Part shown: in pieces, positions 3,216-29,958 of the stretch
How the letters are laid out: each line of letters starts with the position of its first letter
Numbering within the stretch: the first letter of the stretch is position 1
IMG/VR virus record: IMGVR_UViG_3300024254_000007
Coordinates: 1-37,490 of that record
DNA length: 37,490 bases
DNA from: a virus
Taxonomy: Duplodnaviria > Caudoviricetes
Direction: 5' to 3' (one strand)
Translations under genes and position numbers: made by a program
Notes under the pieces: model-generated
The model's input: only the letters and a program-made list of their open reading frames with translations
The model's database searches: none
What the model was told of the DNA's origin: nothing

Positions 3216-3913
3216 TATCCTAGTTGATCCATGACTAAATCTTTGAAGAAGCCCGGGCCCGCCGAGCTCACGGCCGTGAGGCGCCCGCCGCCCTCGATGG
3301 TCGGGCGGAGCGCGACCCATGTCTCAAAGGCGTGATCCCAAAACGCGACCTCATCGGCGAGCACGCTCGTAAAGGTGTGCTGCCGCGCTTGCTCCTCGCC
3401 CTCGCCGAGCGCCACGATCTCCGAGCCATTGGGAAAGCGGAGAAAGCCAATGGAGTACTCGACCTCGACCGCGGGAAACGTCGGCGGCAAGTGGTCGTGG
3501 ATGAATTTCGCCCGCCGCACGAGCTCCGCCGACCCCTCCGTCTCCGTCTTGCCGAGTTTGCGCGCCATGAACGCGACCTTGGCATGCGGCGAGAACCGCG
3601 CGAGCCAGTAGTTGGCGGCGACAAAGAGCCAGGTAATCACCATGCGGCGCGATTTCGGCACGGCCAAGATGGGATGCTCTTGCCACCGCCGCACGAGGAG
3701 CTCGGCGTACTCATGCGCGGGGTAGCGCCGCACGCGGCCCGTCACCTCGTCCCGCGTCCAGACGCAATCCCGCACAAACGCCCACGGGTCGCCGGCGGGC
3801 CCGTAGGCGCCGAGCATTTTGCGTTGCTCGAGCAGCAAGCGCGCCGCGGCGCGCATGGCTAAGGGATGGTCGGGCCCGAGGACGCGGCCCGCACCGGCGC
3901 CGGGTTGCGGCAT
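3215..3913 (-). CDS. terL: Terminase large subunit, N-terminal ATPase half
   Basis: Walker A-like PKSRRMVITW, FPNGSEI, Walker B VLADE, motif III VSS; no nuclease domain. Confidence 0.85.
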   Translation of the reverse strand: MPQPGAGAGRVLGPDHPLAMRAAARLLLEQRKMLGAYGPAGDPWAFVRDCVWTRDEVTGRVRRYPAHEYAELLVRRWQEHPILAVPKSRRMVITWLFVAANYWLARFSPHAKVAFMARKLGKTETEGSAELVRRAKFIHDHLPPTFPAVEVEYSIGFLRFPNGSEIVALGEGEEQARQHTFTSVLADEVAFWDHAFETWVALRPTIEGGGRLTAVSSAGPGFFKDLVMDQLG

Positions 3914-8014: not shown

Positions 8015-9082
8015 ATGGCGTGGTCCTATACCGCGCCGCGGGTGCAGCGCCGCCCGCTCGGCACGCCCGTGCGGCCGGCGTCGAGTGGCGGGACCGGCGG
8101 CCCGCCGACCGGGCCGGCGGGGGGCGACCTCACCGGCACGTATCCCAATCCGACCCTGGATATTTCCGGCGTCAATCCGGGGATCTACGGGGATGCGACG
8201 CACGTCCCGACCCTGGACGTGCGCGGTGATGGTCGGATTTACGGGGCGACCGAGACGGTGTTGCCCACGACGTTCCCGCCAAGTGGCCCGGCGGGCGGTG
8301 ATTTGACCGGGACGTATCCCGGCCCGACCGTGGCCGCGGCAAAGATCACCGCGGCGAAGCTGTCGCCGGCGCCCGTGGCAGGGGACGTCGGCAAGATGGT
8401 GACGGTGGCGACGGGGCCGGCCCTCGCCTACACGGCGGTACCGACAGCGTTGCCCCCGAGCGGCGCCGCCTCGGGTGATCTCTCGGGCACGTACCCGAGC
8501 CCCCAGATCGCGGCGGGGGTGATTGTCGACGCCGACGTGAGCGCCACGGCGGCAATTCAGTACAGCAAGCTCACGGGCGTCCCGACGGCCTTGCCCCCGA
8601 GCGGGGCGGCGAGCGGGGACCTTACGGGGACGTATCCGGGCCCCACCATCGGCGCCCTCAAGGTGACCGATGCGAAGATCAATGACGTCGCGTGGGGCAA
8701 GATCACGGGGGCGCCGACGGCGTTGCCGCCGAGTGGGACGGCGGGCGGCTCGCTGGCGGGCAGCTACCCGAATCCCACGTTGACGACGAGCGGCGTCGCG
8801 GCGGGCACGTACGGGACGGCGGCCAAGATTCCGCAAGTGACGCTCACCGCCGAGGGCCGGGTCAGCGCCGTCACGGAGCTGGCCGTGGCGCCGACCGGCG
8901 GGAGCCCAAGCGGGCCGGCGGGCGGATCGCTCGCGGGCTCGTATCCCAACCCGACGCTCGCGACGACGGGCGTCACGGCGGGCACCACGGGCGACAAGTA
9001 CAACGTCGCCCAAGTCACCGTGAATGCCGAGGGCCGCGTGACCGCCGTCGCGCCCGTGCTGATCCGCGCGCGGTGGGGTTGA
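8015..9082 (+). CDS. Fibre-like structural protein with repeats
   Basis: Six P[ST]GxA[GS]G[DS]LxG[TS]YPxP repeats and three GxxG...[DE]GR[IV] fibre repeats. Confidence 0.75.
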
Positions 9083-9525
9083 ATCCGTTGACGCGGGTTC
9101 CGCTCACGCTGCGCGAAGCCAACGCCTACGTCGCGCGATGGCATCGCCATCACGGGCCGGCGCACGGGTGCCGGTTTTGTCTCGCTGCCGTCTTAGACAA
9201 CCGCGTCGTCGGCGTCGCCATCGTCGGCCGCCCCGTCGCCCGTCGCCTCGACGACGGCTACACGGTCGAGGTCCGCCGCGTGGCGACCGATGGCACGCCG
9301 AATGCGTGCTCCTTCCTCTACGGGGCGTGCCGTCGGGCGGCGCTGGCGCTCGGCTACACGCGGTGCCTTACGTACATTCTCGATACCGAGCCGGGCACGA
9401 GTCTCCGCGCGGCGGGCTATCGCTTGGTCGGCGAGGCCGGTGGCGGCTCGTGGTCGCGCGTGAGCCGCCCGCGGGTCGATCTGCACCCGACGCAAGGAAA
9501 GCTCCGCTTCGAGGCCGGCGCCTAG
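9079..9525 (+). CDS. XF1762-family, Mom-like GNAT protein (candidate DNA base modification)
   Basis: [39 protein letters not shown] and [10 protein letters not shown]; TTG overlaps the fibre stop. Confidence 0.8.
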
Positions 9526-10395
9526 ATGCCGTTTCTCGGCGCCCGCGGCGCGGCCCCCGACCCGCGCGGTGTCGCCGCGCAACCCATGCCGGGCGTGACG
9601 GAATGGAAATGCCCGCGGAACGGCGTCCATGTGGTCGAGGTCCACTATACTGCCGACCCGGGCAAGCGGACGGCCGAATGGAAGCGCACCGCGCAGCAAG
9701 GCATGCCGCCGCGCGGCTGGCAACGCGAGTTTGAAATTGCCTTCGACCTCGCCGCGGGCGAGCCCGTGTTGCCGGAATACGTGCCGGCGGAGATGCGCCG
9801 CCCGTTTCCCGTGAGCCCGAGCGCGCGCCTGCTGCGCGGTTGGGATTTCGGGCAAGTGTGCCCCGTCACGCTCTTTGCCCAAGTCGACGTGCACGGGCGG
9901 CTTGGGTTTGTCGCCGAGCTCGTGCTCGAGCATGCCAATCTGACGGCGCAAATCGAGGCGACGAAAGCGCTAACGCTCGAGCTCATGGGCCCGGGCGCGA
10001 ATTGCTTTGACGCCGGCGACCCGGAGGCATTGCATGAGATGGAGCTCGGGTCGATTCGCGCCGCGCTCTTGAAGCACGGCATTGTGTTGCAGACGTTCGG
10101 CGGCCGCGGCGACACGTCGTACAATAATTTGCGCGACCGGCTTTTGCGCCGCGTGAAGATTCCCGGCGAGGACGTGCCGAGCCCGGCGCTCATTGTCGAC
10201 CCGCGGTGCCCGATTCTGCATTCGGCGCTCTCGGGCGGCTTCGCCCGCCATCCGAAAACCGGGAAGCCCATGCCGACGCATCCGTACAAGGACGCTGTAG
10301 ATGCAGCACGCTACCTGAACGACAATCTGCTCGGGAGCTCGTCGGAATGGATGCTCAAACTGCAAGCCATCGCGAAAGCGGATTGCGCGTGGTAG
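9526..10395 (+). CDS. terL: Terminase large subunit, C-terminal (lid plus RNase H-like nuclease) half
   Basis: VHYTADP...WQREFEIAF linker, GWDFG, GDP and DAVDAARY acidic motifs; upstream of the portal. Confidence 0.85.
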   Translation: MPFLGARGAAPDPRGVAAQPMPGVTEWKCPRNGVHVVEVHYTADPGKRTAEWKRTAQQGMPPRGWQREFEIAFDLAAGEPVLPEYVPAEMRRPFPVSPSARLLRGWDFGQVCPVTLFAQVDVHGRLGFVAELVLEHANLTAQIEATKALTLELMGPGANCFDAGDPEALHEMELGSIRAALLKHGIVLQTFGGRGDTSYNNLRDRLLRRVKIPGEDVPSPALIVDPRCPILHSALSGGFARHPKTGKPMPTHPYKDAVDAARYLNDNLLGSSSEWMLKLQAIAKADCAW

Positions 10396-18508: not shown

Positions 18509-20527
18509 ATGCCCGGCGGCCCCGACAGAGAAACGCCGATTCCCGTCCGGCGCTTTCAGGGCACCATGCTCGCCATGGACCCGGCCTTTGTGCCGCCCGG
18601 CTTCGTCACGCGGTGCGAGAATTGGGTGCCGGATCTGACGCTCGTCTTGAGCAAGCGGCGCGGGAGCGCGCCGTGGCAACGGTTGCCGCAACCCGGGCGC
18701 GTCGACCCGCTCTACTACTGTAGCGGGAGCGACGGCACGCGCTATCTCTATTGCATCGCCAATGACCAACTGTACGTCTCCGTGAACGACGCACCGATGA
18801 CCACGGTCACCAATGGGGCGTTTACGGCGGGCCCCGTGGAGGACCTCCGCTACGGCGTCGCGGCGGTCGGCGATACGCTCTACATCGGGAACGACAGCGA
18901 CCCCATCAAACAGATTCCGCTCGGCGGCGCCGCGACGGACCTCGTGCCGCTCGCGTTGCTCGACGATACGGGCCAGGTCGCGACGGCGATTGCCGACGAG
19001 CTCGCCCGCGTGCTCGCCGGGACGTACAGCTATCGCTGGGCCATCTATCACACGTCGACGCAGCAGTGGACGAAAGTCGGCCCCGTGCACACCATCACGA
19101 CGGCGGGCACGGGGCGGCAACGGCTCGGCTTTCAGGCGCCGACCGTGGCGCTCGGGACGGGCGAGCTCTACCACTTGTTTCTTGCCGGCGTCGACCAGGA
19201 GATTGAGGGCGCGCACGACCAGACCCCGGCCGGGTTGCCGGCGTCGGGCGGCGTCGATCAATTCGCCTTGTGGGACGATCCCGCGGTGGAGTCGGCGGTC
19301 GTGCCGATTCCCTCGACGGTCGTCCGGCGCGGCGCGCATCTGATTGCGCATCGCGGCCGCTTGTGGGGCGCCGGCGGCCTCGATGCCACGGCGCGGCGCG
19401 TCTGGGCGACCAACGTGCTCGTGCCCGGCCTCGAACAATCGCTCTATGACCAAGCGCTCTTTTTCCCGGCCGGCGCCGTGACGCCGGACTTGGGAGACCC
19501 CGTCACGGCGCTCGCCGTCGCCACGTTGTCCTCGACCAATCGGAGCCCGACGTCGCCGCTCGGTATCATGACGGCGCAATCGACGTGGCTCTATTTCGGC
19601 GATCCGGTGGACGACCCGCAATCCTCGCTTGTCCAGGTGTCCGACGAGGTCGGGTGCATCAGCGACCGTACCGTGGCGTCGACCCCGCTCGGCATCGTGT
19701 TTTGCGGCAAGCGGAGCGTGTATCTCTTGACGCCGCAACAAGCCGAGCCGAAAGACGTGGGCTGGCCGATCGAGCCGGCGGTGCGCGCGGTGCCCGTGCC
19801 CGAGCGGACGCGGTGTTGGGCGATCTACCACCGCGGGTTTTACAAGCTGGCGCTTGTGCCCGCGGGCGGCGACGAGCCGACGCAGCAATGGTGGCTCGAC
19901 CTCCGCCGCGGCCTCGGCGACCCGCCGGCGTGGTGGGGGCCACATACGACGCCGAGCTACAGCGCCGGGGCGCGCGCGACGAATCATCCGGCGGAGGAGG
20001 ATCGCGCGTGGGCCGCGCAAGACAGCTCCGTGGCATTCTTCGTGCTCCTCGACCAGGCCGACCGTTACACCGATCCGGTCGGGCCGCGCTCGGGCGGGCA
20101 ATGGAACGTCGCGCACTGGAACGTTGACCAGTGGGCGCAAGAAAACGCCGTGCCCATTGTCTCGCGGCTCGTGACCGCGGACCTCGACGGCGGCGCGCCG
20201 TTGACGCCGAAGATTGCGAAGCGCGCCCGCATCGTCGCGAACATCTTTGAAAGCACGTCGCTCGGGATTACCGTGACCGCCGATCATAGCTACGGCGTCG
20301 CGGGCACGCTCAACGTGCCGATGGCGCTCGGCGACGTGTGGGATACGGCTGTGTGGGATACCGCCGCGTGGGCGATGCAACAATGGATCTTGAGCGAATT
20401 TGAATGCCCGGTGCCCGAGCCGCGCGGCCGGCTCTTTTCCACGACGTTGACGCACGTTGACCCGAATCCCTGTGACCTGCGCGATTTCGAGCTCCGCGTG
20501 CAACCGTCGAGTCGGGAGACGCAGTAG
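18509..20527 (+). CDS. Tail nozzle/stabilisation protein (tail tubular B, P22 gp10-like)
   Basis: 672 aa, beta-rich; LSKRRG, HRGRLW and VGCISDRTV motifs. Confidence 0.8.
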   Translation: MPGGPDRETPIPVRRFQGTMLAMDPAFVPPGFVTRCENWVPDLTLVLSKRRGSAPWQRLPQPGRVDPLYYCSGSDGTRYLYCIANDQLYVSVNDAPMTTVTNGAFTAGPVEDLRYGVAAVGDTLYIGNDSDPIKQIPLGGAATDLVPLALLDDTGQVATAIADELARVLAGTYSYRWAIYHTSTQQWTKVGPVHTITTAGTGRQRLGFQAPTVALGTGELYHLFLAGVDQEIEGAHDQTPAGLPASGGVDQFALWDDPAVESAVVPIPSTVVRRGAHLIAHRGRLWGAGGLDATARRVWATNVLVPGLEQSLYDQALFFPAGAVTPDLGDPVTALAVATLSSTNRSPTSPLGIMTAQSTWLYFGDPVDDPQSSLVQVSDEVGCISDRTVASTPLGIVFCGKRSVYLLTPQQAEPKDVGWPIEPAVRAVPVPERTRCWAIYHRGFYKLALVPAGGDEPTQQWWLDLRRGLGDPPAWWGPHTTPSYSAGARATNHPAEEDRAWAAQDSSVAFFVLLDQADRYTDPVGPRSGGQWNVAHWNVDQWAQENAVPIVSRLVTADLDGGAPLTPKIAKRARIVANIFESTSLGITVTADHSYGVAGTLNVPMALGDVWDTAVWDTAAWAMQQWILSEFECPVPEPRGRLFSTTLTHVDPNPCDLRDFELRVQPSSRETQ

Positions 20528-21504
20528 TGGCGCAGATTCCCCGCCCGCCGAAGCAAGGCGCCGTCATGACGTACGTCGCGAAAGTCGCGGCGGGCTACCC
20601 GCACATCTTGGCCGGCGAGATGGACGCGGACCTCGATACGATCTACGGCGCGTGGAATGGCGGCGCCGATACGGTCAACATTCGTGACGGCGCAATCACG
20701 AGCGCCAAGCTGGCGGCGGATTCGGTCGGGCCGCGCGAGTTGCAAGATAGCGGTGTGGGCACGAGCAATCTGGCCGACGCCGCCGTCACGACGCCGAAGA
20801 TTGCCGACGGCGCGGTGACGGATCCGAAGATCGTGAGTGTCGCGTGGGCGAAGGTGACGGGCATCACGCTCCCGACGACCCTCCCGCCGAGCGGCCCGGC
20901 CGGCGGCGATCTGGCGGGCTCGACGTATCCCAATCCGGTGATTGCGCCGGGCGCCGTGACGGCGGCGAAGCTCGCGCCCGGCGCGGTCGGCCCGACTGCT
21001 CTCGCGACGGGTTCGGTCGGGGCCGCCCAGATACTGGATGGCAGTATCGGCACGGTCGAGCTCGCCGACGGCGCGGTGACGCGCGCCAAACTCGCGGTCA
21101 ATGGAACGCTCGCGCCGCCCGGCGTGTTCGTCTCGAATCCGAGCGGCTTTGCGCTGAACACGGCGGGCGTGTGGACGAACTATGCGACGCTCCCGAGCCT
21201 CACGACGCGAGGCGGGGCCGTGCTCTTGCTGGCGAATCCCGCGTCAAGTGTGCTGGGGGGCGTCGCGGGGGGCATCTGCAACACGCGGTGGCTCCGCGAC
21301 GGCACCCCGCTCGCCGCGAGCCCGTGGTTGGTGTCCGCGCCGGCCGGCAACACCGCGACGCCTCTCCCGGGCGTGACCTGGCTGGATCTGAACGCGCCCG
21401 CGGGCGCGCACGTCTACAGCTATCAGGTGCAGGCGGGCGCCAGTTGTAGCATCGTGAGCCCCCCGCAAAGTGACGGCGGATTCTTCGCGTTGGAGATTGG
21501 CTAA
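20527..21504 (+). CDS. Tail fibre 1
   Basis: N-terminal anchor, DGAVTxxKL repeats, C-terminal beta domain. Confidence 0.8.
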   Translation: MAQIPRPPKQGAVMTYVAKVAAGYPHILAGEMDADLDTIYGAWNGGADTVNIRDGAITSAKLAADSVGPRELQDSGVGTSNLADAAVTTPKIADGAVTDPKIVSVAWAKVTGITLPTTLPPSGPAGGDLAGSTYPNPVIAPGAVTAAKLAPGAVGPTALATGSVGAAQILDGSIGTVELADGAVTRAKLAVNGTLAPPGVFVSNPSGFALNTAGVWTNYATLPSLTTRGGAVLLLANPASSVLGGVAGGICNTRWLRDGTPLAASPWLVSAPAGNTATPLPGVTWLDLNAPAGAHVYSYQVQAGASCSIVSPPQSDGGFFALEIG

Positions 21505-22595
21505 TGGCGGTCACGCGACCACTCAAAGAAGGCAGCGTCACCACGTATCAGGCCAAGGTCGCGGCCGGCTTTCCCGATATCCTCGCGAGCGAGGTCGACG
21601 CCGACCTCGATACGATCTATGCGGCCTGGAACGGCAACGTGGGCACGGCGAATCTCGTCGACGGCGCGGTCACGTATGCGAAGCTGGCGCCCGACGCGCA
21701 GCTCTGGCGCGACACGGGCACCGCGCTCACCCCCGGGACGAGTTTTGCGACGCGCCCCGTTGCGTGCGCGCCGGTCAATAATGCGCTCTCGTGGGGTGTC
21801 GCGACCGTGAAAGGGCGCTTGGTCGATCAAGGGGCGGGCGATATTCAATGGCGCGTCAATGCGACGACCAGCAACGTGCAGGATGACGTCGCGAAACCCT
21901 CGTGGGGGATGCGCATGGGGCCCGCGGTGGATAACCTGTATGTCTCTCGCGCTCCGGCGGGTTCCAGTACCTACGTCGGGTTACTGACGGTCGACGCGAC
22001 CGGCAACTTATATGTGACCGCCTCCGAGTTTTTCGGGGCGCAGGGGTCGCTCACGTCCGCCGCCGGCAGCTCGACCAACTTTGGTCGGAACTATAGCAAT
22101 GCGCCAGGATATGATAACACTAAAGCGAGCTGGGTAGTATTCCTTCATTCCAACGATACCCTTGGCGTGTGGCGTGGTGCGCCCGGCGTTGGCAGCCCAA
22201 ACACGAGCTTATTGTCGCTCGACGCGGCCGGCAATTTGACGATTGCCGGCGCGACGGCGACCAAAGCGAGCGGCACGACGTGGGCGAATCCCTCCGATCG
22301 CCGCTTGAAGGACGAGATTGCGGACTACGCGACCGGGCTCGCCGCCATCCTGCAATTGCAACCGCGGACCTTCGTGTACAACGGGAAAGGCGGCTCGGTC
22401 GCCGGCATGCGTGGCTATGGGTTCATCGCCGATGAAGTCGCGCCCGTCATGCCCGAGACGGTCAGCACGCGGGCCGGGAAGCTCGAGGCCGACGACGAGG
22501 AGGAGACCGACATTCAGACGCTTGACCAGTCGAATCTCATTCTGGCACTCGTCAACGCCGTCAAGGAGTTGGCGGCCCGTATGGACGCACAATGA
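21504..22595 (+). CDS. Tail fibre 2 with C-terminal S74 intramolecular chaperone
   Basis: Same anchor as fibre 1; SDRRLK...GFIADEV...ALVNAVKEL. Confidence 0.88.
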   Translation: MAVTRPLKEGSVTTYQAKVAAGFPDILASEVDADLDTIYAAWNGNVGTANLVDGAVTYAKLAPDAQLWRDTGTALTPGTSFATRPVACAPVNNALSWGVATVKGRLVDQGAGDIQWRVNATTSNVQDDVAKPSWGMRMGPAVDNLYVSRAPAGSSTYVGLLTVDATGNLYVTASEFFGAQGSLTSAAGSSTNFGRNYSNAPGYDNTKASWVVFLHSNDTLGVWRGAPGVGSPNTSLLSLDAAGNLTIAGATATKASGTTWANPSDRRLKDEIADYATGLAAILQLQPRTFVYNGKGGSVAGMRGYGFIADEVAPVMPETVSTRAGKLEADDEEETDIQTLDQSNLILALVNAVKELAARMDAQ

Positions 22596-22780
22596 CCGAC
22601 CGGGGCTCCCTCGACCGCGCGACGCTCGAGGCACGCCACGGCGCCTTGCACGCGGAGCTCCTCGAGGCTATGCGCACGGTCGAGCGCTACCGCGGCGCGC
22701 TCGCCCTCCTCGACGAGCTCCTCGCGCTGCCCGACCCGCCGCCGCCCGGCGAGGCGCGCGGGCTCGAGGCGGTCGCATGA
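22592..22780 (+). CDS. Small coiled-coil protein
   Basis: ATGA-coupled on both sides. Confidence 0.6.
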   Translation: MTDRGSLDRATLEARHGALHAELLEAMRTVERYRGALALLDELLALPDPPPPGEARGLEAVA

Positions 22781-23400
22781 TTCGCCGGGCGACCTTCGGC
22801 GACGTGCCCGGGCTCCGCCGCCTCTTTGCCGCGTTGACGGCGGAGGTCGAGGCGAGCCGCGCGGTATCGTATCCGACGCACGGCGCCGAGGATCTCGATT
22901 CCTTTACGCTCTTGACGGCGCAGCGGGTCGAGAACGATCCGACCTTGCTGCTGTACGTCGCAACCGACGACGCTGGCGAGCTCGTCGGGTTTCTCGGTGG
23001 CGAGGTTTCCGAGCGGGCCATCGGGCAGCCGCGCATTTTTGGCTCCGCCCATTGGCTCTATATCGTGCCCGCCGCCCGGGGCCGCGGCCTCGCCCGCGAG
23101 CTCGTGCGCCGCGGCGCCGCCGACTTGGAGGCGCTCGGTGTGTCACACGTTGAGCTCGCAGCCGTCGCCGGCGATCTGCAATGGATGGCCCGTGGCTGGA
23201 TTCCGTTCCTCGTGCACCATGCCTTGCCGGTCGCCGCCGTGCTGGCCGGCGCCGCCGAGCGCCCCGCCGTCCAACCCACCGCGGCGGAGCGCCCGGCGGC
23301 GTCGGCCCCTCCTCCGCCGCCCGAGGCGCCGGCGTCGCCTCCGAAACGCCGACGCGGGCGGCCGCCCAAGCCGCGGCTCGTCGCGGGAGGCCGGGCATGA
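22777..23400 (+). CDS. GNAT acyltransferase 1 with C-terminal AT-hook-like motif
   Basis: IRRATFGD start; LYIVPAARGRGLARELV motif A; tail PKRRRGRPPKPR. Confidence 0.88.
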   Translation: MIRRATFGDVPGLRRLFAALTAEVEASRAVSYPTHGAEDLDSFTLLTAQRVENDPTLLLYVATDDAGELVGFLGGEVSERAIGQPRIFGSAHWLYIVPAARGRGLARELVRRGAADLEALGVSHVELAAVAGDLQWMARGWIPFLVHHALPVAAVLAGAAERPAVQPTAAERPAASAPPPPPEAPASPPKRRRGRPPKPRLVAGGRA

Positions 23401-23915
23401 GCCTCGTGATCCGCCTCGCCGAGCCCGGCGACCGTCGCGCCCTCGAGCTCCTCCTCGGCGGGCTCATGCGGGAGCATCAAGCGGCCTTTCCCGAGGCCTA
23501 TCCGCATTTTGCGAGCCCCGAGGCGGCCGCCGCGTTTTTCGCCGGCGGCTACGCCGTGCGGCTCGAGCATGATTCGCGCCTCGTCGCCGTGCTGGCCGTC
23601 GACCGCGCCCCCGTGGGGTGCCTTGTGGGGGAGGTCGTCGGGCGGGCCGTCGGTCGGCCGGCGACGGTGTGTCACGTTGATTGGTTTGTTGTCGCGCCCG
23701 AGGCCCGCGGGCAGGGCATCGGGCGGCGGCTCGTGCGTGCCGGCCTCGCTGTGCTCGCGACGCACGGCGTGACGCACATCGAGTGCCTAAGCGCGCCGGG
23801 CGACCGGCAATGGCAACGCCGCGGCTGGCGGGAAACGGCGCGCCGCTACGTCGCCCCATGCGAGGACGTCGCCAAATGGGTCGACCTCGAGGAGCTCCCG
23901 CATGATGCAGGATAG
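23397..23915 (+). CDS. GNAT acyltransferase 2
   Basis: IRLAEPGD start; FVVAPEARGQGIGRRLV motif A. Confidence 0.88.
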   Translation: MSLVIRLAEPGDRRALELLLGGLMREHQAAFPEAYPHFASPEAAAAFFAGGYAVRLEHDSRLVAVLAVDRAPVGCLVGEVVGRAVGRPATVCHVDWFVVAPEARGQGIGRRLVRAGLAVLATHGVTHIECLSAPGDRQWQRRGWRETARRYVAPCEDVAKWVDLEELPHDAG

Positions 23916-25227
23916 CCGCCGCTACCATCGCACGCGCCCGCCGACCTTTGCGCGGGCGTATGGGTCGCAACAATCCTCGCCCGGCGTGGTGTCGCCGTAT
24001 GGCGGCCTCCCGGCGCAGGTCGCGGGGCGCCTCAACCGCCAACAACTCTCGCCGCTCCTCCTCGGGCTCGGCGCCGGGCAAGGCGCGAAATATCAGAAAC
24101 TCATGAGCGACATTCAAAGCGGCCGCGCCTCGGGTCCGCTCGCGTCGGCGATTCAACAAATCCAGCAATTCGCGCCCGGCGTGGTGAGCGGCGCGCAAGG
24201 CATCGGGCAGCAAATGAGCGCGCAAGGCGCCACGGCGGTCGGCAGCTTGCAAGACGCGATTCGGACCGCGCAAGCGCAAATGCCGCAATATCTCGCCGGC
24301 ACCAATCAGGCGTTTGGCGCGTCGCAAGGGGCGCTCGGCAACGCGCAGGATCTGTACGGGCAAGCCGCGGCCATGCTCCCGGGGTTGCAGCAAACCTCGG
24401 CGCAAGGCACGCAAGGGGCGCAGCAAGCGTTGGGCGCCGCGCAGGGCTACATGACGGGGCCGCAAATGCAGGCGGCGCAAGCGCAGCTTGCCCGCGCGCA
24501 AGGGCTCTTGCAGGGGGGGAGCGCGGAGGGCGGCGCCGAGAATGCCGTGCAATTGGCGCAACGCTACGCGCAGCAAGCCGCCTCGCCGATTGCGAATGAG
24601 GACCTCTACCAAGCGGCCTCGCGGCGCGTGATGCAGCAAATTCAACCCGGGCTCGCCGCCCGCGGCCTCGAGGCCGGTGGCGCCGGCGCGCAGCTCTCGG
24701 CCGACACGCAACGCGACTTGGCGATGCAGTTTGCGCAGAATCAGGCCGCGCAACGGCAAGCGACGTTGCAGGGGTTGACGGGCGCCTCGCAAGGGCTCGG
24801 CGGGCTCCAAACGCAAGCGCAGCAAAACGTGGGCGCCGCGGCCTCGGGGCTCGGCAACCTGCAAGCCCAAGGGCTGCAAGGGCTCGAGGGCGCGAGCCAG
24901 GGCGTCCAGCAAGCGGCGGCCGCGCAAGGGGCGCTCGGGCAAACGATGCTCCCGTATCTCTCGGCGATTCAGCAAGGCGCGCAAGGCGTCGGGCAGATGG
25001 CCGGGCAAGGCGCCAATATCAACATGATGGCGCCGCAGCTCGCCGGCATGCAGGCAGACGCCGTCAACCGGCTTGGGCAAACCCTCATGCAGCAATATAA
25101 TTTGCCGATGCAGGGGGCCGGCAATCTTCTCAACTTGCTCACGGCCGGGCAAGCCCCGAGCCTGCAGATGCTTCAGGCGACGTCGCCCCAAGTCGCAAAT
25201 TCGAGCAAGGGATACAATATCCTCTAG
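23902..25227 (+). CDS. Internal virion/ejection protein 1 (Q/G/A-rich) with conserved leader
   Basis: Composition and position; leader MMQDSRRYHRTRPPTFARAYG. Confidence 0.75.
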   Translation: MMQDSRRYHRTRPPTFARAYGSQQSSPGVVSPYGGLPAQVAGRLNRQQLSPLLLGLGAGQGAKYQKLMSDIQSGRASGPLASAIQQIQQFAPGVVSGAQGIGQQMSAQGATAVGSLQDAIRTAQAQMPQYLAGTNQAFGASQGALGNAQDLYGQAAAMLPGLQQTSAQGTQGAQQALGAAQGYMTGPQMQAAQAQLARAQGLLQGGSAEGGAENAVQLAQRYAQQAASPIANEDLYQAASRRVMQQIQPGLAARGLEAGGAGAQLSADTQRDLAMQFAQNQAAQRQATLQGLTGASQGLGGLQTQAQQNVGAAASGLGNLQAQGLQGLEGASQGVQQAAAAQGALGQTMLPYLSAIQQGAQGVGQMAGQGANINMMAPQLAGMQADAVNRLGQTLMQQYNLPMQGAGNLLNLLTAGQAPSLQMLQATSPQVANSSKGYNIL

Positions 25228-25239
25228 AGGTCGCGAGCT

Positions 25240-25857
25240 ATGACGCACGATACCCGGCGCTATCATCGCACACGGCGGCCGACGTTTGCCCGCGGATACG
25301 GGATGCTCGGTGCCCTCGGGAGCGGCGTGGCCGATGCCGCGGGCGCCGCCGGGGGCGCCCTCGGGAGCGCCGCGAGCACCGTCGGGAGCGGCCTCGAGAG
25401 CGCCGTCGGCTCGGCGCTCGGAGGCGCCGGGCAATCCGCGCTCGGCGGCCTCTCGAGCGTCGGGCAAGGGTTGCAATCGCTCTTTAGCGGGGGCGGCGGC
25501 GAGGCCGGGCACCTCGCGGCCCTCGGGCAAGCGGTGCCCCAAGGCGTCGAGCTCGCGGGGCCCTCGAGCACGTTTGCCGGGCCCGGGTTTCTCGGCGGTG
25601 TCATGCAAGGGTTTACCGGCGCCGCGTCACACGTCGCCGACCCGAGCGCGGCGACAAGTTTTGGCTCGGGGATCGGGCAGCTCTTGAGCACGCTCGACCA
25701 ATTGAACGCGGGGCGGCAAGGCGGCGTCTCGATGCAACCGATTGTGCAAGGGCTCGGCGCGCACCTCCAGGGGCCGCGCGTCATTCCCGGCGGCTCGTCG
25801 CAACCCGGGCAAGGGAACATCATGAAAATGATTGGGCAGATTCTCGGCGCGGTCTGA
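25240..25857 (+). CDS. Internal virion/ejection protein 2 (G/A/S-rich) with conserved leader
   Basis: Gly-rich pilot-like sequence; leader MTHDTRRYHRTRRPTFARGYG. Confidence 0.75.
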   Translation: MTHDTRRYHRTRRPTFARGYGMLGALGSGVADAAGAAGGALGSAASTVGSGLESAVGSALGGAGQSALGGLSSVGQGLQSLFSGGGGEAGHLAALGQAVPQGVELAGPSSTFAGPGFLGGVMQGFTGAASHVADPSAATSFGSGIGQLLSTLDQLNAGRQGGVSMQPIVQGLGAHLQGPRVIPGGSSQPGQGNIMKMIGQILGAV

Positions 25858-25858
25858 C

Positions 25859-28216
25859 ATGGATTCGCCCGTTACGAGCGGCATCGAGAATATCGCCGGG
25901 CGCGGGATCGGGCTCCTCGCCGCGGCCTCGGCGATTAAGGGCGGCGGCCTCGGGAATTACATGATGGCGCGCGCCCGCATGCTCGGGGATCCGAATTTCC
26001 GCTCGACGTTGATTGATAGCCCGTTCACGTCGGGATTTTTCGGCCTCGGGCAAGGGGCGGGGCCGACGCCGGCGGGCCCCGCGGGCACCGCCACGGGCGG
26101 CGTCGCGCAACCGGCCGATATGGTTGGGCCGCCCGCGCCGTCGGATGCAATCGCCGCCCCGCAAGACGTGCGCTACCTCCCGACGGGCGGGCACTGGTAC
26201 CCGGCCGTGTCGCCGCTCGACTACGCCTCGCAAGCGAAAGCGGAGCAAGACCGCGCCACGATGATCGGGCTCACCAGCACTGACCCGGGAATCCGCACGC
26301 AATCGAAACTCGCGCTCGGCGTGCCGCTGTCGACCGGCGAGCTCGAGCAATCCGTGAGCGCCGGACGGCATTTGGTTGGGCTCGCGGGGCCGGGCTCACA
26401 AGTCCAGTACAAAGTGCCGGGGGGCGCGTTGACGGTCGGGTCGCCCTATATCGCCGGCAACTACATGGATCCGGGCGCCGCGTCGGTCGTGGCGGCGCGC
26501 ACGGGCGGCGTCGTGGTGCCGGGCTCGGTACCGGGCACCTATGACGTCAAAACGCCCGAGAAGCCCGCCGAGAACGAGCACCTTAGCCGCGAGGAGGCCG
26601 CCGCCGCCGCGCAACCGGGCGAGGTGCCCGCGCTGTCGGGACGTACCGTGAACGGCGTGCCGACATGGGTCAACCGCAAGGTCGAGCCGCAAGGCGTGGC
26701 GCCGCTCGAGTCACGCGGCACCGTGCCAGCGACCGAGACGCCGCCCGCGACGATTCCGACCCGTACCAACAATCCGGGCAGCATCAAGGACGGTCCATTC
26801 GCGCAGGCGCAACCCGGCTACCTCGGCGCGGGCCCCCCGGCGACCGACGGCGGCCGCTTTGCCGTCTTCAACTCGCCCGAGGCCGGCCACGCCGCCATGA
26901 CGAATCTCTTGCGGGCGCCGTCCTATCAAGGCTTGCCGGTCGGGGCGGGCTTGCAACGTTGGTCCGGTGGGGGCTATGGCGGCGAGGTCGCGCAGGGGGC
27001 CGGTATCGACCCGACGCGCCCCATGGCGTCGCTTAGTGACGCGGAGCGCACCACGCTCACCGGCGCCATGGCGCGGCGGGAAGGATTCCAGGGGTCGCTC
27101 TCGGCGCCCGCGGCGCCCGCGGCCGCCCCGACACCGCCCGCGGCCGCACCCGCCCCGCCGCCTCCGCCGCCCCCGCCCCCGCATGAGGTCGTGCGGCTCA
27201 ACCCCGACGGCTCGTTTTCGCCCGTCACGCCGCCGGCGCCGCCCCCGCGAGCGCCCGCGCCGCGAGCCGCGGCGACCGTCGCCGCGCCGCCGAGCTCGTC
27301 GCTGTTCCAATTCCCCGCCGGGGCCGCCGTTGCGCCGCCATATGAGGTCGTGCCAGGCGCCGAATTGGGCGGCGTCGCGAGCGGCGCCCCGCCGGCGCCC
27401 GCCGAGCAACGCGGCCCGATGCCGCCGCCGACCCCGCCCGCGCCCGCCAGTGTGGTGCCGTTCGCCCAAGCGGTAGCCGGGCAAGCCGCGGGCGCCGCGG
27501 GCGCGGCCCCGGCCGGTATGCCCGCCGGCACGCAAGAGTTTACCGAAACGCGTCCGCTCCCCGCGGCCATTGGCGGCTCCGTCACCGTGACCGGCAAAAC
27601 GCCCGAGGCGCTCGATTACGAGCGGCGGCAAGCGGAGATACAAAAACAGGTCGAGCGCGACTTTGGGAAAATTCCCGAGGCCAAGGACGTGCAAGCCGCG
27701 CTCATGGTGCGCGCGCCGATTGATGCGCTCTTGACTGCATACCCGAAACCCGAGGACCGCGGCGCGTATCTCGGGTACGTCACGCCATATCTCCAGCAAG
27801 TGTTGGCGGCCAAGGATCCGCGTTACCAGCATTTTCTGGCACTCAACGACGAGATACGGAGCTCGATGCTGGCGGCGGGCGCGCCCAAAGAGGCGATTGA
27901 CGCGCTCCCGACCGGCGCGGAAACCACGGCGGAAGCCTACGAGGCGAAATTGCGCTCCGCGGCGGATACGGCCGACCGCATGATTGCCGGGCAAACCGCG
28001 CTCGCCAACATGCACACCAGGGATCTGTCGGCGCCCGACAAGCTACAAAAGTTGCTGCAATACATGGCAACCCCGAGCGCCGTGCATTACGGGCCGTACC
28101 CGTGGACCGACGAGCAAGCGCAAGCGCAATCGACCCCGCCGAGCGCGCCGCCGACGTCGACCACGAGCCCGTTTGTGGTGGACCGGCTCTACACGGTGCA
28201 ACCGTCGGCGCAGTAA
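25859..28216 (+). CDS. Internal virion protein with lysozyme-like domain
   Basis: RTNNPGSI...FAVFNSPEAG...MARREG domain amid Pro-rich linkers. Confidence 0.72.
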   Translation: MDSPVTSGIENIAGRGIGLLAAASAIKGGGLGNYMMARARMLGDPNFRSTLIDSPFTSGFFGLGQGAGPTPAGPAGTATGGVAQPADMVGPPAPSDAIAAPQDVRYLPTGGHWYPAVSPLDYASQAKAEQDRATMIGLTSTDPGIRTQSKLALGVPLSTGELEQSVSAGRHLVGLAGPGSQVQYKVPGGALTVGSPYIAGNYMDPGAASVVAARTGGVVVPGSVPGTYDVKTPEKPAENEHLSREEAAAAAQPGEVPALSGRTVNGVPTWVNRKVEPQGVAPLESRGTVPATETPPATIPTRTNNPGSIKDGPFAQAQPGYLGAGPPATDGGRFAVFNSPEAGHAAMTNLLRAPSYQGLPVGAGLQRWSGGGYGGEVAQGAGIDPTRPMASLSDAERTTLTGAMARREGFQGSLSAPAAPAAAPTPPAAAPAPPPPPPPPPHEVVRLNPDGSFSPVTPPAPPPRAPAPRAAATVAAPPSSSLFQFPAGAAVAPPYEVVPGAELGGVASGAPPAPAEQRGPMPPPTPPAPASVVPFAQAVAGQAAGAAGAAPAGMPAGTQEFTETRPLPAAIGGSVTVTGKTPEALDYERRQAEIQKQVERDFGKIPEAKDVQAALMVRAPIDALLTAYPKPEDRGAYLGYVTPYLQQVLAAKDPRYQHFLALNDEIRSSMLAAGAPKEAIDALPTGAETTAEAYEAKLRSAADTADRMIAGQTALANMHTRDLSAPDKLQKLLQYMATPSAVHYGPYPWTDEQAQAQSTPPSAPPTSTTSPFVVDRLYTVQPSAQ

Positions 28217-29958
28217 TGGCCGAGGACCAGCAATTCTACCGCCAATTCTTGCAGTCGACCGGCCCCGACGGCTCGCAAACCGTGCGGGAGGTCGTGTCGC
28301 CGACTCTGCTCGACGCCGACGCCGCCGCCGCGGCGGAGCACCAAGCGGGCCGCACGTTTGCGGGGTTCGTCGCGCCCGAGAAAATGGCGGGCGTTGGGCG
28401 GGCGCCGGCGCAACCGCCGCCACCGCCCGAGCCCGCGGTGCCACCGTTGCCGTCCGACGTCGCGCCGACGTCGGGCATCGTGCCGACAAATTACGGCGCG
28501 GCGCCCGACCCGCGGGCCGCGGCCATGGATGCCCGAATCCGCGGCGCGCTCGAGGAGGCGGGCGCCCCGAGCTCCCGCGTTGCGGCGCCCGGGAGCTCGC
28601 CGTGGCTCAATGCCATTCCGCCGTTTCTTGCGGCGGCGGGCCCAACGGCGCTCGCGATTGCGCAACCCGAGCTCGGGATACCGTTGTGGATTGCCCAAGC
28701 GGCGGCCGCCGGGGGCGGCATGGGCGGTGGTGAGGCACTCCGCGAGAAACTCGCGGGCGAGGCGCTCTCGCCGTCGAATATCGCCGAGTCCACCGCCCTC
28801 GGGGCCGGGACCGAGGCCGGCATGAGCCGGGTCGGTATTCCGCTCGCCACGGCCGCCGCGCGCGGCCTCGTCGGCCGCCTCTCTGGAACGCTCGGCGCCG
28901 TCGAGGAGCTCGGGCCCGTGCTGGCGTCGCAAAATGCCGCGACCACCGCGGCGCCGACGGTCGGCGACCTGGCCGCCGCGGGCGCCGACGCGACCCGGAG
29001 CGCAACCGAGCCCGCCTTTAAGGCTGCCCGGGTTGCGGGGGCGGGGCTCCCGGTCTCGACGGCCGGGCTCGAGCCGTATGCGACGGCCGCGAGCACCGCG
29101 GTCACGCGGGCCGGCGCCACGCCCGACCAGGTCGCCGAATTTGGCACGGTCGTCAAACCCATGGTCGGCGGCGTGCCGGGCGATTACGCGCAGCTCGCCG
29201 GGCGCGAGCGCCAACTCGAGAATTGGGTTGCTGGCATGCGCGCACAAGGCGCCGACCCGGCCGACGTGGCGGCCGTCCAGCAATTGCACGGCGCCGTCGG
29301 GAGCCAGCTTGACGCCACGGCCACGGGCACGCCGGCGGCCCCGATGCGCGCGCAATACGTGGCGCTCCAAGGCGAAACCCTCCCGACCCGCTACGGGCTG
29401 TCGAACCTGCAAAGCAACCCCGCCGAGCTCGCGGCGCCGGCGAACGTGCCCGCGTTCCAAACGGTCGTGGCGCAAGCGAGTGCCGCCGACCGGCCCGCGC
29501 TGGCGGCCGCATGGGTCGATTCCGCCCGGCAAGCCGCGGCGCAAGCGGGCAACCCCGTCACCGCCATGCGCGGGGCATACGAGGCGCTCGGGCCCGAGAC
29601 GCAAACGGCGCTCTTTGGCGCGCAAAAGGGCGCCTTTGAGCACGTCATCAATACCGCGTGGGGCGGCTCGCCGGCCGACGTGCAAAGCCTCCTCGGCACG
29701 ACGGCCGCCTTTGGCGGTGGGGGTGCCGGGGCGAGTCACCTCGGGCTTCCGTTCCATGTGCCGGGCATCATAACGGCGCGGGCGGTCTCCGACGCCGCCA
29801 CGCCATTTCTTGCACGCGGCGCGCTTATGAATCCGCCCGTGGCGGCGTTTGGGGCGGGCGTGTCGCGTGTGGCCGGCCAAGCGGGGCCGGCGGTGGCTCG
29901 CCTCGGCGGGCAAGTGGTTGCCGAGCGGGCCCGGCAAGCGGGCTTGCCGACGTTCTAG
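28216..29958 (+). CDS. Large Ala/Gly-rich internal virion protein
   Basis: TAATG-coupled; last gene of the structural operon. Confidence 0.7.
   Translation: MAEDQQFYRQFLQSTGPDGSQTVREVVSPTLLDADAAAAAEHQAGRTFAGFVAPEKMAGVGRAPAQPPPPPEPAVPPLPSDVAPTSGIVPTNYGAAPDPRAAAMDARIRGALEEAGAPSSRVAAPGSSPWLNAIPPFLAAAGPTALAIAQPELGIPLWIAQAAAAGGGMGGGEALREKLAGEALSPSNIAESTALGAGTEAGMSRVGIPLATAAARGLVGRLSGTLGAVEELGPVLASQNAATTAAPTVGDLAAAGADATRSATEPAFKAARVAGAGLPVSTAGLEPYATAASTAVTRAGATPDQVAEFGTVVKPMVGGVPGDYAQLAGRERQLENWVAGMRAQGADPADVAAVQQLHGAVGSQLDATATGTPAAPMRAQYVALQGETLPTRYGLSNLQSNPAELAAPANVPAFQTVVAQASAADRPALAAAWVDSARQAAAQAGNPVTAMRGAYEALGPETQTALFGAQKGAFEHVINTAWGGSPADVQSLLGTTAAFGGGGAGASHLGLPFHVPGIITARAVSDAATPFLARGALMNPPVAAFGAGVSRVAGQAGPAVARLGGQVVAERARQAGLPTF

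Follow-up and report, generated by a model that had tools for sequence, protein, structure and literature searches.

A shared, swappable leader on two likely ejection proteins encoded beside paired GNAT genes in a Caudoviricetes virus

The virus record IMGVR_UViG_3300024254_000007 of IMG/VR (Duplodnaviria; Caudoviricetes) was analyzed over its whole stretch of 37,490 nucleotides, referred to here as the window, which is a complete 37.5-kb record with direct terminal repeats. On its plus strand lies a cassette of two GNAT genes followed by two genes for likely ejection proteins. The first GNAT gene, G1 (22777..23400), encodes 207 amino acids (aa), with a GNAT core of about 160 aa and a Pro-rich, basic C-terminal tail; the second, G2 (23397..23915), encodes 172 aa, is a paralog of G1 with about 35-40% identity, and lacks the tail. 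The genes E1 (23902..25227; 441 aa, rich in Gln, Ala and Gly) and E2 (25240..25857; 205 aa, rich in Gly and Ala, with a hydrophobic stretch after Gly21) come next. G1 and G2 are joined by an ATGA overlap, and the end of G2 overlaps the start of E1. Both E1 and E2 begin with a leader of 20 residues, encoded at 23902..23961 and 25240..25299. The initial annotation had placed two coupled GNAT genes directly before E1 and E2, and the coordinates, the matches to PF00583 (E 3e-8, 6e-11) and those to phrog_1249 agree with this arrangement.

E1 and E2 are alike in residues 1-21 only. Sixteen of these 21 residues are identical, as had been noted in the initial annotation, and the likeness ends after residue 21 (residue 22 is Ser in E1 and Met in E2). 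No further copy of the leader motif was found in the six frames of the window. Peptides from the body of E1, not from the leader, led to 15 viral loci (14 distinct), all of which contained both GNATs and both leaders; the likeness between the two leaders is therefore not due to chance. Three zones can be recognized in the leader: a near-invariant D-[ST]-R-R-[YL]-H (D-S-R-R-Y-H-R in E1 of the window), a basic linker that varies, and an R-x-[YF] end followed by Gly (R-x-Y in E1). The sequence is rich in Arg and His, and its N-terminal half is best conserved.

Comparison of codons indicates that selection is acting on the leader peptide, in line with the initial annotation. In the window, 8 of the 16 identical residues are encoded by differing codons, and synonymous variation extends across relatives. 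For the Ser of the motif, 80 E1 leader variants use AGY codons in 47 cases and TCN codons in 29. Among 29 two-leader loci, selected for a linker without gaps and including the window's own record, synonymous differences in motif codons appeared in 34% of E1 pairs and 52% of E2 pairs, and the linker differed at 47% of E2 codon pairs. When the E1 and E2 leaders were compared within genomes, 290 codon pairs contained 140 synonymous and 3 amino-acid differences; the latter figure is partly fixed by the search pattern, of which the former is free. A DNA or RNA element in place of a peptide is ruled out, since synonymous sites vary freely. The upstream gene often ends within the opening codons of the leader. 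Such overlap may bias codon use, but it cannot account for the motif, because the E2 leader of the window overlaps no gene. Ongoing gene conversion between the two leaders left no signal (0.722 within genomes vs 0.716 between genomes, p 0.16).

Other identities for the leader were considered and rejected. A signal peptide of the twin-arginine translocation (Tat) type has an invariant RR followed by a hydrophobic h-region. The leader contains no hydrophobic stretch, and the RR is replaced in variants such as SQRYH, SHRYH, SRQYH and TRHLH. Self-cleavage before Ser does not fit a position after Gly that varies among S, K, Q, M and others, and an internal start of E2 at Met22 is unlikely, Met22 being replaced in several loci that retain the leader. 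The motif was not found on a third protein: a first strict pattern search placed 43 of 45 stretches on contigs of the E1/E2 family, the other 2 being out of frame, and for a second strict pattern 23 of 60 stretches were inspected, of which 22 lacked a start codon immediately ahead of the motif and the remaining one belonged to another E1.

A profile search with E1 returned 88 representatives, the leader state of which was sorted by eye, relying on predicted starts, with the DNA context of those starts seen for four leaderless loci only. By this sorting 47 are leaderless, 25 bear a leader, 15 are fragments and 1 is unclear. The 25 leaders comprise 16 of the DSRRYH type, 3 that are otherwise His/Arg-rich, 4 unrelated ones, and 2 of a 'YTKIVID...KGG' type. 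A tree of 60 E1 bodies from which the leader columns had been removed implies at least 11 changes in leader presence and at least 7 in the DSRRYH type; 23 of the 57 inner branches of this tree are weak, and gain is not separable from loss. The sister clade retains the leader on E1, and its E2 begins directly, for example with MGFIAPVLGAIG or MAWMAPVLGAVG; leaderless orthologs of E2 begin with M-G or M-A, and by sequence comparison the E2 leader occurs in the clade of the window phage only. Conservation of the leader in homologs, on which the initial annotation depended, holds for the close loci, all 15 of which have both leaders, and does not extend to the 47 of 88 E1 representatives without one. 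As judged from these comparisons, the leader is an optional and swappable module. The distant E1 proteins L260 and L001 carry an almost identical leader (DSRRYHRRRPPTFTR), which suggests that leaders move between lineages by recombination.

The leader is likely cut before Gly21. It looks removable at the Tyr-Gly junction because its end coincides with the position of the initiator Met in leaderless orthologs. In E1, Y/GKNQSSTSISSPYG of clade B is in register with M/GKTQSQTGVHSPFG of the leaderless protein P0133 (the slash marks the junction); in E2, Y/GAIGPILGAIG of locus L107 is in register with M/GFIAPVLGAIG of the sister clade, and MGFIAPVLGAIG is in line with the residues after Y/G. The junction was surveyed in 22 of the 25 leader-bearing E1 representatives. 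An aromatic-Gly junction lies exactly 11 residues before a conserved P-[FY]-G in 13 of them and elsewhere in 2; in the other 7 it is missing. Cleavage between Tyr and Gly, as initially proposed, therefore draws indirect support from the register with Met-initiated orthologs and is weakened by these 7 sequences.

In leaderless E1 proteins, removal of the Met gives 11-12 residues before P-[FY]-G in 19 of 47, most others being longer. Their residue 2 is Ala in 15, Ser in 15, Gly in 13 and Pro in 4, hence small in all 47, as against 18-29 of 47 at positions 3-10; the sequences behind these residue and register counts are related, their starts predicted and their sorting done by eye. Gly, Ala, Ser or Pro at residue 2 permits removal of the initiator Met. 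Met removal and the leader cut would therefore both give a free N-terminus with a small residue. No phage protease was found among 112 translations of open reading frames (ORFs) of the window (40 + 72) scanned against Pfam and PHROGs, and a host peptidase is therefore presumed.

The presence of GNAT genes is independent of the leader state. In 66 tube-anchored loci that were scanned, 37 had an E1 match, and a GNAT gene lies directly upstream of E1 in all 37. Twelve of the 37 have a single GNAT; four of these contain a leaderless E1 (L200, L219, L255 and L256) and eight have a leader on E1 only. The GNAT of L200 (identical to L169) is a clear G1 homolog (probability 98.6). An automated tally covered 64 de-duplicated loci, several loci of the tube-anchored scan having been dropped by the script, and 54 of the 64 had a complete GNAT stretch. 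Two GNATs occur with two leaders in 21, with a leader on E1 only in 15 (the next gene being HNH-like in one), with the next gene cut off in 10, and with a degenerate leader in 1; the other 7 have one GNAT. In the distant locus L264, a phrog_1249 GNAT precedes a protein with an unrelated, K-type leader. The G1 and G2 clades of the GNAT tree (support 92 and 99) each hold both phage clades, and the GNAT pair is therefore older than the E2 leader; single GNATs form long branches, the placement of which is unsure. Because relatives keep their GNAT genes with or without a leader, the leader is unlikely to guide the neighboring GNATs.

A model of G1 residues 1-165 built from 79 sequences reached a predicted local distance difference test score (pLDDT) of 92 and has the GNAT fold; it superseded a model from a shallow alignment (pLDDT 59). 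Among solved structures it matches HPA2 (Z 15.8 over 126 residues, root-mean-square deviation 2.6), VF_1542 (15.3), DpA (15.2), NatA (12.9) and RimI (12.8), with no clear winner. The best 50 of these matches are small acetyltransferases, generic small-molecule and lysine acetyltransferases ranking highest, and no myristoyltransferase is among them, a result that leaves room for a long acyl chain. Against BFVD, the model is closest to phage GNATs, and a myristoyltransferase label is attached to 2 of the best 50 matches. The pyrophosphate loop for acyl-coenzyme A (CoA), R-x-x-G-x-[AG], is intact as RGRGLA in G1 and RGQGIG in G2. Its Arg is invariant in 79 of 79 sequences and its Gly in 64 of 67. 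The invariant positions of the GNAT alignment are Pro33, Pro85, Pro98, Arg101 and Glu126, the loop Arg and the Glu of strand beta-5 being present in 79 of 79. By these features, G1 and G2 look like intact CoA binders. A beta-5 Glu serves as the base in RimI; the usual position of the catalytic Tyr is apparently Trp in 64 of 67, by an equivalence drawn by eye. Position 92 separates G1 from G2 (His in 30 and Glu in 30 of 67). Among cultured phages, the nearest relatives are acetyltransferases of Vectrevirus, with about 31% identity, and neither G1 nor G2 matches PF11090 (Phage_T7_Gp13) or PF11039. The tail of G1 (23260-23400) has a Pro-rich linker and a basic run in 115 of 116 homologs. RGRP is present in 19 of them and an LVxGG-like end in 81; in most single-GNAT tails, an NG[HL]D-like motif stands in place of the G1-type ending.

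E1 and E2 are likely ejection proteins, E2 of a pilot-like kind, as indicated by gene position, a lysozyme-like match in E3 and a weak ESM lead to P22_gp7. By gene order, E1 opens the internal-protein block that follows the tail genes, a position like that of P22 gp7. No family match names E1 or E2. In 21% of one cluster, E1 has an ESM lead to PF25688 (P22_gp7), with a score of 0.91 and 153 shared features; this family has no hidden Markov model match to E1 at E<=1 and none in the window genome. E1 had no match in cultured phages, in solved structures, or in GTDB by E1 patterns. E3 (25859..28216, +) is a large, likely ejection protein with a lysozyme-like stretch (phrog_873 and phrog_2276, E ~1e-4), and E4 (28102..29958, +) is, by position, likely the last ejection protein, with an uncertain start and no family match in Pfam or PHROGs; neither has a leader. 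In several loci of the sister clade (L127, L144, L227 and L251), an HNH-like gene stands between E1 and E2. Some E1 orthologs (P0162, P0172, P0193, P0200, P0143, P0129 and P0133) are fused at the C-terminus to self-cleaving domains, which Pfam identifies as Peptidase_S74 in 4 and as Hint in 1, with 2 more being Hint-like by eye. The fusion junction falls at the usual end of E1, and both ends of E1 may therefore be processed.

Elsewhere in the window, Pfam and PHROG scans identified a portal gene (10565, PF23899-like), a major head protein (15705), two tail-fiber genes and an integrase, and the virus is therefore likely a temperate, short-tailed phage. A likely tail tube B gene, so labeled from its size and position, and the two tail-fiber genes (tail-fiber PHROGs, S74) lie 5' of the cassette at 18509..22595 (+). 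The tail-fiber genes (20527-22595) have in common an N-terminal segment of about 62 residues, with about 63% identity in relatives, which is likely an attachment domain. An ATPase-like terminase half matching phrog_2 is encoded at 3218-3913 (-), and a 289-aa ORF before the portal gene at 9526-10395 (+), without a Pfam, PHROG or PDB match, has by eye the look of a nuclease half; the terminase may be split between opposite strands. A Mom-like DNA modification protein (phrog_1384, E 2.5e-31) is encoded at 8692-9525 (+); Mom has the GNAT fold, which would make this the third such gene in the genome. The sole GTDB match (L265) is a 30-kb contig in a metagenome-assembled genome of Gaiellales, which may be a binned phage. 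One 54-kb IMG/VR contig, carrying L024 and L070, contains two differing copies of the entire tail and ejection module and is probably two related genomes joined.

Four known systems offer comparisons. In P22, the GNAT-fold gene 14 lies upstream of gp7. The first 20 residues of P22 gp7 are removed by the host enzyme oligopeptidase A (OpdA), so that the mature protein starts with Lys-Gly-Gly-Lys-Gly (PMC8402733). The present cassette resembles it in a leader of about 20 residues on the first ejection gene, a Gly-rich mature start, a cut that would likewise depend on the host, and the largely dispensable nature of the leader. It differs in that the leader sequence is unrelated, the cut is predicted after an aromatic residue and not before Lys, the leader occurs on two different proteins, two GNATs are present, and PF25688 and PF11039 have no match in the window genome. 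In T4, the internal proteins IPI, IPII and IPIII share a 10-residue propeptide, the capsid targeting sequence (CTS), with targeting and processing positions (PMC9026906; PMC3012670). The E1/E2 leader is similar in that it stands, nearly unchanged, on internal proteins otherwise unrelated to each other, and in its two-part build, of which the targeting half is a predicted one here. It differs from the 10-residue CTS, cut after Glu by the phage protease gp21, in having 20 basic residues and in the many orthologs that lack a tag. A cut of the T4 type, after L/I-x-E by a phage prohead protease, does not fit the junction of R-x-[YF]/G, and no protease match was found in the 112 ORF translations. 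By analogy, the E1/E2 leader would be a propeptide working like those of P22 and T4, and it belongs to neither by sequence.

The GNATs have their own parallels. SP6/K1E-like Vectrevirus phages likewise carry a small GNAT in the virion gene block, and G1, G2 and the L264 GNAT belong to the same phrog_1249 family. In contrast to Vectrevirus VEc3, with its single GNAT two genes before the portal gene, the GNAT is here duplicated and directly coupled to E1, and the window GNATs differ from helpers of the T7 gp13 type in having no PF11090 match. Leader-directed acylation is known from ribosomally synthesized and post-translationally modified peptides (RiPPs), with tailoring by GNATs of the lipopeptide type. 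The cassette resembles such systems in its conserved leader, variable downstream part and adjacent GNAT; it is unlike them in that enzyme and leader assort independently, the substrates are virion proteins of 200-440 aa, and no protease or leader-recognition domain was found. A survey of mostly non-subscription literature yielded no paper in which ejection proteins are the target of a GNAT. In the available portion of a review of ejection proteins (PMC8954989), the words 'acetyl' and 'leader' were not found, and those of PMC10386132, PMC3765740 and PMC9728967 contained nothing on a link between GNATs and ejection proteins.

Selection acts at the level of the leader peptide, leaders are optional and swappable, and a GNAT stands beside E1 whatever its leader state. 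The favored explanation, given slightly better than an even chance, is that E1 and E2 carry a portable propeptide with an N-terminal half for handling or head loading, that it is cut by the host at R-x-[YF]/G, and that leader-independent GNATs possibly acetylate the mature end. The D-[ST]-R-R-[YL]-H half would mediate the handling or loading and the R-x-[YF] end would mark the cut, from which a host peptidase would leave a small-residue N-terminus equal to that of Met-processed leaderless relatives. In one clade, the E1 leader would have been copied onto E2, with the second GNAT already present. The weakest step, which is tentative and falls somewhat short of probable, is that the GNATs, recognizing the mature part, would acetylate the free N-terminus or in some other way prepare the proteins to be packaged or ejected. 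A more specific version is doubtful: the cassette GNATs would be N-terminal acyltransferases on the free Gly, Ala or Ser of E1 and E2, and the leader a removable cap blocking the alpha-amine until the host cut at R-x-[YF]/G, thereby timing the modification.

Several points weigh against the propeptide explanation. Cleavage, targeting and acylation are all deduced from sequence, and the sorting by leader state was made by eye on predicted starts, with DNA context for only four leaderless loci. The aromatic-Gly junction is missing from 7 of the 22 surveyed representatives, and Gly does not follow the leader in every case. Proteins starting with M-P are poor substrates for acetylation, and 4 of the 47 leaderless E1 proteins start in this way. 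Since over half of the E1 family functions in leaderless form, the leader cannot be the sole loading signal. The closest cultured GNATs, those of Vectrevirus, precede the portal gene, not ejection genes. Moreover, P22 retains about 60% of its burst when gp7 lacks the first 20 residues (PMC8402733).

The same evidence bears on other explanations. The leader could be retained uncut, as a basic tag that would attach to DNA, scaffold or portal and assist in loading or ordering E1 and E2 in the head, with the GNATs acting elsewhere. The Arg/His-rich sequence with its best-conserved N-terminal half, the lack of a protease gene among the 112 ORF translations and the junctions other than aromatic-Gly would suit such a tag. 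It is nevertheless unlikely: the exact register with Met-initiated orthologs and the R-x-[YF]/G conserved after a variable linker fit a cut site better, and the leader at the equivalent gene position in P22 is removed by a host enzyme (PMC8402733). A cleaved leader of minor effect, which would aid solubility or translation or prevent toxicity by masking a membrane-active N-terminus, with GNATs that are chaperones or modify lysines or other targets, appears quite improbable. The strong purifying selection on the motif (3 amino-acid vs 140 synonymous differences, the former partly fixed by the pattern) argues against it, and the strict small-residue N-terminus (47 of 47) suggests that the free end itself matters. 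Consistent with a minor effect are the absence of the leader from 47 of 88 representatives, the generic small-molecule and lysine acetyltransferases among the best structural matches, the hydrophobic stretch that begins right after the leader of E2, and the largely dispensable leader of P22 (PMC8402733).

The system proposed in the initial annotation was RiPP-like, with GNATs that recognize the leader, perhaps one GNAT for each substrate, and attach an acyl group to the Gly that cleavage would expose. Both GNATs and both leaders do occur together in 21 of the 54 loci of the tally, the E2 leader is found in two-GNAT loci only, the consistent difference between G1 and G2 at position 92 hints at different substrates, and the myristoyltransferase label appears on 2 of the best 50 BFVD matches. 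The state with two GNATs and two leaders, however, belongs to one clade and therefore represents one event. GNATs beside leaderless E1 in 4 of the 12 single-GNAT loci, together with the phrog_1249 GNAT before an unrelated leader type in L264, indicate that enzyme and leader are not inherited together. The 15 two-GNAT loci in which E1 alone bears a leader, and a GNAT pair that predates the E2 leader, speak against one GNAT per leader or substrate. The leader was thus found largely unlinked to the paired GNATs, and leader-directed acylation is very improbable.

These results extend the precedents of P22 and T4 and do not establish a new system. The assembly of ejection proteins in short-tailed phages has been called poorly understood (PMC8402733). 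The present family is a natural experiment in this respect, offering E1 with no leader, with the DSRRYH leader or with unrelated leaders, beside one or two GNATs, and the mature N-terminus is predicted to the residue. If the GNATs acylate the mature end, a widespread phage gene would gain a function; if the leader loads cargo, it would be a new portable tag. Should the leader cap the N-terminus and the GNATs acylate it, the long-unexplained GNAT helpers of podoviruses would acquire a chemistry, together with a portable tag of 20 residues.

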